From a virus: a DNA stretch of 7,147 nt. The notes beneath the pieces were generated by a model, which was not told where the DNA came from, searched no databases, and was given only the letters and a program-made list of their open reading frames with translations. Location of the stretch: UHGV virus genome UHGV-1395224. The stretch is one strand, 5' to 3'. Each line of letters starts with the position of its first letter. The first letter of the stretch is position 1. Below, piece by piece: positions 4,146-5,123 of this stretch. The translations under genes and the position numbers were made by a program.

Positions 4146-4190
4146 AGACGCCCCGTTACTGCTCCTACAGTGCGGGGCGTTGTTTTTTGT
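4146..4190 (+). terminator. Rho-independent terminator, plus-strand orientation, with no convincing plus-strand gene upstream
   Basis: ACGCCCCG (4148-4155) pairs with CGGGGCGT (4173-4180); an inner ACTG/CAGT stem (4158-4161 / 4168-4171) sits inside the loop; followed by TGTTTTTTGT (4181-4190). On the minus strand the hairpin is followed by CTAACCAAC, so it is unidirectional. Confidence 0.65.
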
Positions 4191-4251
4191 GTAATGGTAA
4201 GTACAATGGTAATTACCATGTAACTATAGTAATTAAGGGTAATTACCATGT
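4191..4251. promoter_or_regulatory. Operator/promoter region for the RHH gene: two perfect 10-bp palindromes GGTAATTACC 30 bp apart, plus a central palindrome ACTATAGT
   Basis: GGTAATTACC at 4208-4217 and 4238-4247; the 14-bp direct repeat GGTAATTACCATGT at 4208-4221 and 4238-4251. AATGGTAA at 4193-4200 and 4205-4212. ACTATAGT at 4223-4230 holds a -10-like TATAGT. The second palindrome abuts the RHH start codon. Confidence 0.6.
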
Positions 4252-4421
4252 CAACACCATTAGAGAAACGATCGCCACCATACCAAATGCGACTACCAGA
4301 AGAATTTAGAGCGCAACTTGAGGAGGCAGCCAAGGCAGACGGCGACACCTCATTAGCTACTTGGATTAAACGAATACTCCGCAAAGAATTACAACAGCGC
4401 GGTATCGAGCCCAAAGGCTGA
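4248..4421 (+). CDS. Arc/Mnt-like ribbon-helix-helix DNA-binding protein, 57 aa (below the ORF-track size cutoff)
   Basis: Hand translation gives MSTPLEKRSPPYQMRLPEEFRAQLEEAAKADGDTSLATWIKRILRKELQQRGIEPKG, stop TGA at 4419-4421. Beta-strand YQMRLP followed by two helices is the RHH pattern. AAGGG lies 8 nt upstream of the ATG. Palindromic operators sit immediately upstream. Confidence 0.7.
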   Translation: MSTPLEKRSPPYQMRLPEEFRAQLEEAAKADGDTSLATWIKRILRKELQQRGIEPKG

Positions 4422-4514
4422 CAGCCAACCAGCAAGCCAGCACACTGATCACATTGCCCACCAGCCGCAAATGTGGCATTGTTGGTGATGCTTTTGTTTT
4501 CCCTTGTTCCCACT

Positions 4515-4546
4515 GGCGACCCTTTTGCGGTCGCCTTTGTTTTGTC
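4515..4546 (+). terminator. Rho-independent terminator, plus-strand orientation, downstream of the RHH gene
   Basis: GGCGACC (4515-4521) pairs with GGTCGCC (4529-4535) around a 7-nt loop, followed by TTTGTTTTGT. Confidence 0.6.
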
Positions 4547-5123
4547 ACTGAATGCGGTTACCAAAGTAAAACTCAGGCTGATATACACGTATCAGCCTTT
4601 TTTCTTCTTCCTCCAGCTCACGCTTTTTGCGCTTACATGCCTGTAGCTCCCTCCCCTTCTCGCTGGCACTTATTTGATATTGCTCTTTACGGCGGGAAAA
4701 ATCCTGTAATGCACCCCATGGGATACCATAAGCCCCCGTTTTTCTGATACCCGGTATCACATTTCTGAATACCCAGTTACTGAAACGATGAGCAAATGTG
4801 CCAGGCGTCGTTGCTTTGCGGCTGCGGGCTATTAGTTTGTAGAAACCTGACTCAGAGATAATTCTCATATTCTGATTTCCTCCTGGGGTGTAAGTTAAAT
4901 TTACTCCCTTTTCATCATCATCAAGCATCTGCAACGCCGTACGCGAATTGGTTAGTTCCAGCGCAGCACAAACATCTTTTGCAACAAACCACGGATCGCC
5001 GTTCAGATACACCACACGAACGTTCACACTATCAAAGCGCAGAACGACGAGATCACGAATATCGCAGAATTTTTTCACTGGACGAGCGTACCCCTTGCCC
5101 GTCACGGCAATATTTTTATTCAT
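4545..5123 (-). CDS. Bro-N domain protein (antirepressor-like), 192 aa
   Basis: N-terminal segment LRFDSVNVRVVYLNGDPWFVAKDVCAALELTNSRTALQMLDDDEKG...GGNQNMRIISESGFYKLIARS matches the Bro-N signature as I recall it. C-terminal region is charged and low-complexity. The start lies only about 18 nt beyond the alpA terminator. Confidence 0.75.
   Translation of the reverse strand: MNKNIAVTGKGYARPVKKFCDIRDLVVLRFDSVNVRVVYLNGDPWFVAKDVCAALELTNSRTALQMLDDDEKGVNLTYTPGGNQNMRIISESGFYKLIARSRKATTPGTFAHRFSNWVFRNVIPGIRKTGAYGIPWGALQDFSRRKEQYQISASEKGRELQACKRKKRELEEEEKRLIRVYQPEFYFGNRIQ
4576..4603 (+). terminator. Second tandem plus-strand terminator, lying inside the 3' codons of the minus-strand Bro-N ORF
   Basis: GGCTGATA (4576-4583) pairs with TATCAGCC (4590-4597) around a 6-nt loop, followed by TTTTTT (4598-4603). 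Confidence 0.6.

Follow-up and report, generated by a model that had tools for sequence, protein, structure and literature searches.

Positions 4141-4545 of the stretch of DNA analysed here, 7,147 nucleotides from the UHGV virus genome UHGV-1395224 (the whole stretch is termed the window), probably constitute a self-contained repressor-operator cassette of about 400 bp, which would silence the replication operon of a phage-inducible chromosomal island (PICI) and would add a layer of control by an antisense RNA. The cassette holds a plus-strand gene for a 57-aa Arc-like ribbon-helix-helix (RHH) protein, two palindromes (O1 and O2) upstream of its start codon, a predicted promoter on the opposite strand, here named P_L, that faces the icd-primase operon, and a conserved hairpin. 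An earlier note on this DNA, made without database searches, had described the RHH gene as an insulated, autoregulated module and had likened it to the arc-ant pair of phage P22. Our reading draws on the elements themselves, their conservation and covariation, selection on the coding frame and similarity of fold; from these we infer that the protein binds DNA, in which direction it regulates, which transcripts arise and how the cassette is bypassed. The elements, by their positions in the window, are as follows.

3921..4118, minus strand: icd-like gene, first of the P_L operon (NCBIfam phage_ICD_like, 63.7 bits; cut-off 25).
4100..4105, plus strand: conserved -10-like hexamer TATGAT, overlapping codons 5-7 of the icd-like gene.
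4112..4189, plus strand: candidate cis-antisense RNA of ~75 nt, consisting of stem-loop 1 (4113-4145) and then the terminator stem-loop.
4147..4189, plus strand: conserved hairpin, rich in GC (4147-4181), and its T tail to ~4188-4189, a predicted intrinsic terminator found by scan, the hairpin being supported by covariation.
4180..4207, plus strand: candidate weak promoter of the RHH gene, TTGTTT (4180-4185, in the terminator tail), 16-bp spacer, TACAAT (4202-4207), with a start at ~4214, inside O1.
4196..4205 (around 4193-4209): weak, degenerate third copy of the palindrome, GGTAAGTACA, an inverted repeat not consistently seen in other lineages.
4208..4217: predicted operator O1, GGTAATTACC, core of a 14-bp palindrome; its position is conserved in related loci.
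4226..4254, minus strand: predicted promoter P_L, TTGACA (4254..4249), 17-bp spacer, TACTAT (4231..4226), with a start near 4219.
4238..4247: predicted operator O2, GGTAATTACC, abutting the RHH ATG at 4248 and lying within the 17-bp spacer of P_L.
4248..4421, plus strand: gene for the RHH (Arc-like) protein, 57 aa, recognised by its open reading frame (ORF), homologues, selection and predicted fold; in the protein, the predicted DNA-reading strand is at about residues 10-16 (PPYQMRL) and the helices are at 18-31 and 36-50.
4515..4545, plus strand: predicted first downstream terminator of the RHH transcript, at the right edge of the conserved cassette.

The 57-aa ORF, already picked out in the earlier note, is, judging by its pattern of substitution, a real gene under strong purifying selection. 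Against one related locus (L003), with a nearly identical operator region, dN was 0.015 and dS 1.26 (dN/dS 0.012), and over 36 pairs dN/dS ranged from ~0.01 to 0.15 with a median of 0.10, at synonymous sites close to saturation. An identical protein has been annotated by PGAP in two E. coli genomes as a hypothetical protein (WP_000106746.1), and a protein search returned 108 homologue clusters, mostly of 56-58 aa and with identities of 62-95%, from Enterobacterales, Pasteurellaceae, Aeromonas and Oceanimonas. In NCBI records a few of these are named 'Arc family DNA-binding protein' and others 'HicB'. An overlapping minus-strand ORF of 153 aa (4127-4588) was rejected as spurious because selection acts on the RHH frame.

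Several methods agree that the product resembles an Arc-like RHH DNA-binding protein, the identity that had been suggested from the sequence alone. It matches the uncurated family phrog_228 ('Arc-like repressor') with an E-value of 3e-7, and an hhalign comparison with Arc (E 7.7e-4) places RSPPYQMRLPEEF onto Arc KMPQFNLRWPREV. The residues of Arc that contact bases are Q9, N11 and R13; given the hhalign register on these contact residues, P11, Q13 and R15 of the window protein are predicted to face the DNA. RHH proteins have about 45-60 residues with a short N-terminal strand and two helices, and as dimers they place a two-stranded sheet in the major groove of palindromic or repeated sites. 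The AlphaFold2 monomer model shows the same beta-alpha-alpha layout, with residues 1-17 extended and helices at 18-31 and 36-50 (pLDDT 77.7; the strand pairs only in the dimer). Nearly all of the top 50 Foldseek matches in the PDB are RHH proteins (AmrZ, Arc, NikR, CopG, ORF56, PutA, ParD and VapB), the match to AmrZ having 37% identity and an rmsd of 1.3. Curated families scored lower: Pfam Arc (PF03869) gave 16.9 bits (E 0.0057) for a gathering score of 20.4 and NCBIfam YlcI_YnfO_N a weak match of 19.1 bits (E 0.001; cut-off 30), so that neither of these curated RHH families matched the window protein above threshold. In PDB sequence searches with the protein and with the family profile, AmrZ appeared only at E 0.5-1, and the top matches, designed helical-repeat proteins, were discarded as compositional matches to the two helices.

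The palindrome GGTAATTACC is present exactly twice, at a start-to-start distance of 30 bp and with the second copy abutting the ATG, as had been noted before, and O1 extends to a 14-bp palindrome, ATGGTAATTACCAT, at 4206-4219. When up to 1 mismatch was allowed, the window contained 3 matches to GGTAATTACC, compared with a mean of 0.18 in 200 dinucleotide-preserving shuffles of the window, none of which (0/200) reached 3. Between the palindromes lies ACTATAGT (4223-4230), in which the earlier note had seen a -10-like hexamer. The hexamer is indeed there but fits far better as the minus-strand TACTAT of P_L, ACTATAGT being the -10 of P_L on the other strand.

P_L matches the sigma-70 consensus at 10 of 12 positions and is the sole strong sigma-70 match in the region. 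Its -35 is the reverse complement of RHH codons 1-3 (ATG TCA A), O2 occupies its spacer and O1 spans about +2 to +11. For comparison, 48 related loci were collected from many Gammaproteobacteria, using one-genome-per-species contigs. Almost every locus has the same order: TGGTTAGA, a GC-rich hairpin with a T tail, ~25 bp, O1, ~20 bp, O2, the start codon and TCA. Of 35 distinct upstream regions, 33 have TTGACA without mismatch as the -35 of P_L, across ATG, GTG and TTG starts and with any third codon, and the Ser codon of the RHH gene is always TCA, of six possible codons; the near-invariance of TTGACA together with the fixed TCA therefore indicates a constraint at the DNA level. A -10-like hexamer is found 16-18 bp from TTGACA in most loci. 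P_L aims through a 100-nt leader at the icd-like gene, three small ORFs, a DUF4222 gene and a D5_N/DUF5906 primase gene, and the leftward operon has replication genes both in the window and in other loci. Hence, P_L and the icd-primase operon are the main predicted target of the RHH protein, with autorepression as a secondary effect.

The sequence of the palindromes varies with the N-terminal strand of the protein encoded beside them. Strands of the form KRSPPYQMRL or KRSPQYQMRL occur with GGTAATTACC, KRSPQFPMRL with GGTATATACC, K(T/S)xQYQIRL with TGTAATTACA and RRGNPPFQFRL with TGTGTCATTACACA or GGTGTAATTGAC. The change of Q13 to P accompanies a central change of AATT to TATA, and residues 9-10 accompany an outer change of GG to TG. 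Because the palindrome sequence tracks this strand, the RHH protein, rather than another island protein, would be the one that reads the palindromes, which suggests that they behave as its operators.

A second part of the cassette lies upstream of O1, where tests on a 38-sequence alignment showed that the GC-rich hairpin is conserved as a structure. In this alignment 92.5% of cells were paired and 8 of 14 pairs had changes on both sides; the covariation score was 0.352 as against 0.161 in shuffles (0/500 reached the score), and slid controls gave 32-56% pairing. G.U cells numbered 61 and A.C cells 13, and the plus-strand fold was the more stable in 36 of 39 loci; the G.U excess and the stability of this fold mark the plus-strand RNA as the selected structure. 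The plus-strand hexamer TAnnnT stands exactly 10 nt 5' of the complement of the ATG of the first minus-strand gene in 35 of the 38 aligned loci. Depending on the lineage, codon 6 of the icd-like gene specifies H, S, Y, T, C or F, yet it always ends in T, the position of the essential A of the plus-strand -10. No conserved -35 was found for this hexamer in the aligned loci.

The RNA predicted to start there is complementary to the ribosome-binding site (RBS), start codon and leader of the icd-like gene, and the loop of its stem-loop 1 holds the anti-Shine-Dalgarno sequence CUCCU. An RNA of ~4112-4189 folds at -32.1 kcal/mol (z -4.2), and stem-loop 1 shows 94% pairing, a plus-strand-only G.U pair in 34 of 38 sequences and a G-C to A-U exchange. 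Since the terminator hairpin is accompanied by its own conserved -10 and by a second stem-loop, it is less likely to be an insulator and probably forms the 3' terminus of an antisense RNA, ~75 nt long, that covers the icd RBS. Cis-antisense RNAs of the sar, OOP or CopA type have a promoter of their own, a stem-loop displaying the complement of the target and an intrinsic terminator, and lie opposite the RBS of that target. Searches of Rfam (the window at E <= 1; 3900-4650 at E <= 10) returned no C4, isrK or other relevant family. The anti-Shine-Dalgarno sequence in the loop of the terminator hairpin was also considered as a trans-acting element and rejected, as this loop is not conserved.

Three plus-strand terminators had been proposed to wall off the RHH gene. 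A scan did find plus-strand terminator-like sites upstream (4160-4179/4167-4183) and downstream (4515-4535 and 4575-4598), and 7 terminator-like sites occur in 3700-4900 where 1.3 are expected. However, the last of the three lies inside the 3' end of the Bro-N gene and scores on the minus strand too, and the upstream one is likelier to be the end of the antisense RNA. The terminator at 4515 is kept in L001 and L002, and the homology of L002 stops there.

For the RHH gene itself, the candidate promoter follows a pattern, TTGnnn-16/17-TAnnnT, which recurs in most lineages; the end of the -10 is 37-41 nt away from the start codon and just 5' of O1. If this promoter is correct, transcription of the RHH gene (start ~4214) and transcription from P_L (start ~4219) would begin opposite one another inside O1, polymerase on one of the facing promoters would exclude the other, and bound RHH protein would block both. 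The cooperative autorepression that was first proposed keeps its geometry, with the operators downstream of the candidate RHH promoter, but the primary predicted target is the opposing P_L, which had been missed.

The surroundings of the cassette are those of a PICI. The neighbouring features are listed below.

305-727, minus strand: SSB gene.
1268-3019, minus strand: D5_N primase gene.
4545-5123, minus strand: ORF of the Bro-N gene, labelled anti-repressor in PHROGs.
4575..4608, plus strand: second hairpin, overlapped by the 3' end of the Bro-N ORF and having T runs on either strand; it scores on the minus strand too.
5180-5437, minus strand: AlpA gene.
5439-6680, minus strand: int gene.

As laid out in the portion of PMC10111431 on gene order, Gram-negative PICIs are arranged in zones of integration (integrase and AlpA), Bro, replication and late genes. 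The window has this order in co-oriented genes, from int and AlpA through Bro to replication (primase, SSB), the late zone being outside the window. Directly upstream of int and co-oriented with it, 6876-7147 (minus strand) is 99% identical to the portal gene B of the lambda family and corresponds to positions 152-242 of the Phage_portal_2 profile, with one junction near 6876 and the other outside the window. Because this fragment of portal gene B directly precedes the integrase, the island is probably a helper-embedded PICI in a lambdoid portal gene. The passage of PMC10111431 that deals with portal insertion names a putative site at profile position 21 only, and the portal site of this island may be a different one.

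Four other explanations were weighed. The first accepts that the RHH protein binds the palindromes and has it act mainly on the helper phage or on rival satellites, by repression or exclusion, or else activate P_L, and we regard it as unlikely. Arc itself can reportedly activate on altered promoters (Smith and Sauer, 1996), and the interchangeable cassette types described below would fit exclusion or heteroimmunity. Satellite regulators that work on helper promoters are also known, for example the PLE regulator CapR as cited in one section of PMC10111431. Both exact sites, however, are on the promoter region of the island itself, and a site in the spacer combined with one at +1 represents the classical repressing positions. 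The only other near-match in the window, GGTAATTAAC (5498-5507, 1 mismatch, ~60 nt upstream of the alpA ATG), was considered as a third operator on an alpA promoter and rejected: it falls within the coding part of int, this region yielded no promoter, and a single match of this kind is no more than chance would produce.

The second explanation, which we consider quite unlikely, is that of the earlier note: an insulated, purely autoregulated Arc-like module, paired with the anti-repressor-like Bro-N gene as arc is with ant in P22, the terminators being insulators only. The RHH and Bro-N genes are adjacent, PHROGs applies the anti-repressor label, terminator-like sites do exist and autorepression is geometrically plausible. 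Yet the start of Bro-N has no operator close to it, the two genes form separate units that converge, and Bro-N adjoins the RHH gene in only 3 of the 48 related loci, an HTH (helix-turn-helix) gene taking its place in L002. The partner that is conserved is the leftward promoter with its operon, and the upstream hairpin, with its -10 and second stem-loop, points to a transcript. The proposed pairing with Bro-N is consequently given up.

It is very improbable that the palindromes and hairpin are recognised by AlpA, the integrase, a host factor or a replication protein with the 57-aa ORF as a bystander. In its favour, the palindromes are AT-rich and overlap promoter elements; against it, the palindromes track the strand variant of the RHH protein, whereas the cassette is found among freely differing types of integrase, AlpA, Bro-N and replicase from locus to locus, and hairpin, operators and RHH gene travel as one unit between loci. 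That the protein is the antitoxin of a type II toxin-antitoxin pair is scarcely credible and was rejected: it is small, is found on mobile elements, has homologues named HicB-like ('HicB family antitoxin') and has ParD, VapB and MazE9 among its fold matches, but the window offers no co-transcribed partner ORF, ~95 nt of untranslated sequence and two terminators follow the gene, the downstream ORF of other loci encodes a basic protein of 57-75 aa that is variable or absent, and the conserved neighbour is a facing promoter and not a toxin gene.

We therefore return to the repressor-operator cassette, the variants of which in other elements show how it is distributed. Facing operons in L012, L015, L030, L040 and L050 encode DUF927/Toprim primase-helicases, an AAA_25 RepA-like helicase, a type IV coupling protein or a reverse transcriptase; because this cargo differs between species, the cassette is not tied to one replicase or element type. 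The same arrangement is found in a Pasteurella element of 15 kb, called a 'phage' but in fact a capsid-forming PICI (cf-PICI). An equivalent cassette is present in the prototype Gram-negative PICI, EcCICFT073 (L056; E. coli CFT073, NC_004431.1 1380242-1381052), with the same hairpin, an icd-like gene, a 59-aa protein of the YlcI/YnfO family and two GTGGGCCACACC repeats, one in the promoter spacer and one at the start region; TTGACG-18-TATAGT is its only promoter-like site. There, the RHH-like gene is followed by an ORF for a basic 57-aa protein (MTDKELTK...), of which the window keeps only the 3' flank (4451-4492).

Strain 88-3493 (L052, NZ_CP027457.1, locus 4040-5130) carries both RHH cassette types in tandem, each with its own hairpin, operators and leftward promoter; the operators are unrelated, the RHH proteins are different and the sole two promoter-like sites in the 1.2-kb stretch fall in the two operator arrays. 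This tandem suggests cassette shuffling by recombination between satellites. A further variant occurs on an IncR plasmid (L054, NZ_CP133280.1, 3430-4150), where a 59-aa homologue with 67% identity over residues 9-57 is oriented divergently to a hypothetical gene, a gene with a WYL domain and a BREX system; this variant is present on about 100 plasmids, of which many are from Klebsiella.

A number of observations weigh against a repressor-operator cassette on P_L. All of the promoters and the antisense RNA are predictions, the RHH promoter candidates are weak and variable (6-9 of 12 matches) and the T tail of the hairpin is poor in some lineages. The covariation of operators and strand comprises about four specificity groups that are related by descent, so that it is suggestive but carries no statistical weight. 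Pfam Arc scored under its gathering score, and the Foldseek search of the PDB gave no single match at E <= 1e-3. In tandem loci such as L052 the distal P_L is without an obvious gene directly downstream. Finally, overexpression of AlpA alone induces EcCICFT073, with uncontrolled replication (PMC6092414), so that control is not exercised by the RHH protein alone, and this protein may not be what triggers induction.

With these points in mind, the cassette may be pictured as follows. RHH dimers on O1 and O2 would repress P_L and, less strongly, the RHH gene's own promoter; without RHH protein the strong P_L should win. The antisense RNA would mask the icd RBS against leaky transcripts. By analogy with P4, which combines an early promoter with immunity, P_L would fire when the island enters a repressor-free cell, after which the RHH protein and the antisense RNA would keep replication and the toxic Icd-like gene silent while the island is resident. 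Induction would probably bypass the cassette through AlpA-dependent transcription from the int-alpA region upstream. Repression and antisense masking are proposed on geometry and covariation, whereas firing on entry, silencing in residence and the override by AlpA are conjectural. A role as an immunity or switch regulator, for which the RHH protein had been named a candidate, is supported by its position. In the 2018 description of Gram-negative PICIs, their global repressor is called unclear, AlpA being the activator of the island (PMC6092414).

The closest parallel among regulatory circuits is immI of P22. In immI the Arc operator lies between the -35 and -10 of the promoter Pant, opposing promoters overlap, the expression of the repressor itself is affected and there is an antisense RNA, sar. 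The window shares with it a small RHH protein (~53-57 aa) whose strand register aligns with that of Arc, an operator in the same position (O2, in the spacer of a promoter that is itself predicted), overlapping opposing promoters and a predicted antisense RNA on the RBS of the gene to be kept off. The two differ in that arc is co-transcribed with ant from the promoter that it represses, whereas in the window the repressor gene and the repressed promoter face each other, the -35 coinciding with the first codons of the gene. P22 also has one 21-bp operator in place of two 10-bp palindromes 30 bp apart, and a second repressor, Mnt, for which there is no Mnt-like counterpart here; Bro-N is not under the operators.

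Plasmid copy control provides another parallel, with its pairs CopG/RNAII of pMV158, CopB/CopA of R1 and CopR/RNAIII of pIP501, among which CopG is an RHH protein. In these, as is proposed here, a replication operon is held by two layers, a small repressor at the rep promoter and an antisense RNA on the leader or RBS. However, CopG of pMV158 is in the same operon as repB, whereas the present repressor would be transcribed the opposite way; the window represents an integrated phage satellite rather than a plasmid, its first regulated gene is Icd-like and not an initiator gene, and its RNA is a prediction.

In position, between an alpA/vis-Bro zone and a replication operon led by an icd-like gene, the cassette also resembles the PLE/CI RNA region of P4 and immI of P1 (C4 RNA-icd-ant). 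The section of PMC10111431 on P4 has the early promoter PLE silenced by immunity and bypassed from an upstream late promoter. The presumed role is alike, an early promoter silenced in residence with a bypass from upstream, but P4 and P1 owe their immunity to a processed RNA of the sense strand, which causes termination, whereas a protein repressor and a cis-antisense RNA are predicted here. A P4 CI or P1 C4 RNA system was rejected for the window, as Rfam gave no C4/isrK match in it.

The master repressors Stl of SaPI and Rpr of Gram-positive PICIs, by comparison, are presumably helix-turn-helix proteins. Like the gene of the RHH protein, the candidate maintenance repressor of this satellite, their genes lie opposite the excision-replication operon and beside its promoter (PMC6092414). 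Both are larger and are inactivated by helper proteins, whereas the published trigger of Gram-negative PICIs is the activator AlpA (PMC6092414). The nearest relative in layout is the YlcI/YnfO cassette of EcCICFT073, which is identical in having an icd-like gene, a hairpin, a repeat pair on the promoter and an opposing RHH-like 59-aa gene. Its protein belongs to a different subfamily (hhalign E 0.12), its repeats are direct copies and not palindromes, and a second 57-aa ORF follows which the window has lost.

The kind of switch described is a textbook one, in which a small RHH repressor acts alone or together with an antisense RNA, and this is a previously uncharacterised member of it in an interesting place. 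When the literature was searched for Arc-like or RHH regulators of PICIs or cf-PICIs, none was found described; homologues are listed as HicB or YlcI/YnfO accessory genes. We offer tentatively, as somewhat short of an even chance, the wider proposal that swappable cassettes of antisense RNA and hairpin, an operator pair on a facing early promoter, and RHH gene supply Gram-negative PICIs, EcCICFT073 among them, with the module for maintenance and immunity that has been missing, that they set 'immunity types' for establishment and for exclusion or co-residence, and that AlpA-driven read-through overrides the cassette on induction. At least four operator specificities occur in this family, in addition to the YlcI/YnfO type.

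Matches to this region were found in 1346 of 5426 complete E. coli genomes, about a quarter, and satellites of this kind move virulence and defence genes between strains. In Gram-positive islands the master repressor Stl explains how a satellite senses its helper; the cassette on the replication-operon promoter is a directly testable candidate for the Gram-negative PICI repressor, and the predicted immunity specificity could serve to type satellites.

Some further features of the island were recorded. A minus-strand terminator-like hairpin at 4063-4083, followed by GCGTTTTCTG, lies ~35 nt into the icd-like ORF over the conserved peptide HTQTAFVWRFLA; a role for this hairpin (4083..4063) as an attenuator linked to the antisense RNA was weighed and set aside, since the hairpin is absent from other Icd variants. 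GGTAGAGGGC iterons of either orientation are densely packed at 1026-1258, a region that adjoins the primase gene on its downstream side and is probably the replication origin of the island; two Rfam 'miRNA' matches on the iteron region were dismissed as repeat artefacts. Three copies of ATTTGCAATACACA (minus strand TGTGTATTGCAAAT) at 6697-6752, just upstream of the integrase start codon, are possibly arm-type sites or binding sites of a regulator. Between alpA (end 5180) and Bro-N (start 5123), a GC-rich hairpin with T runs on both strands is found at 5149-5167; on the minus strand (5167..5149) it resembles an intrinsic terminator that AlpA-dependent transcription must pass, and is a possible control point.

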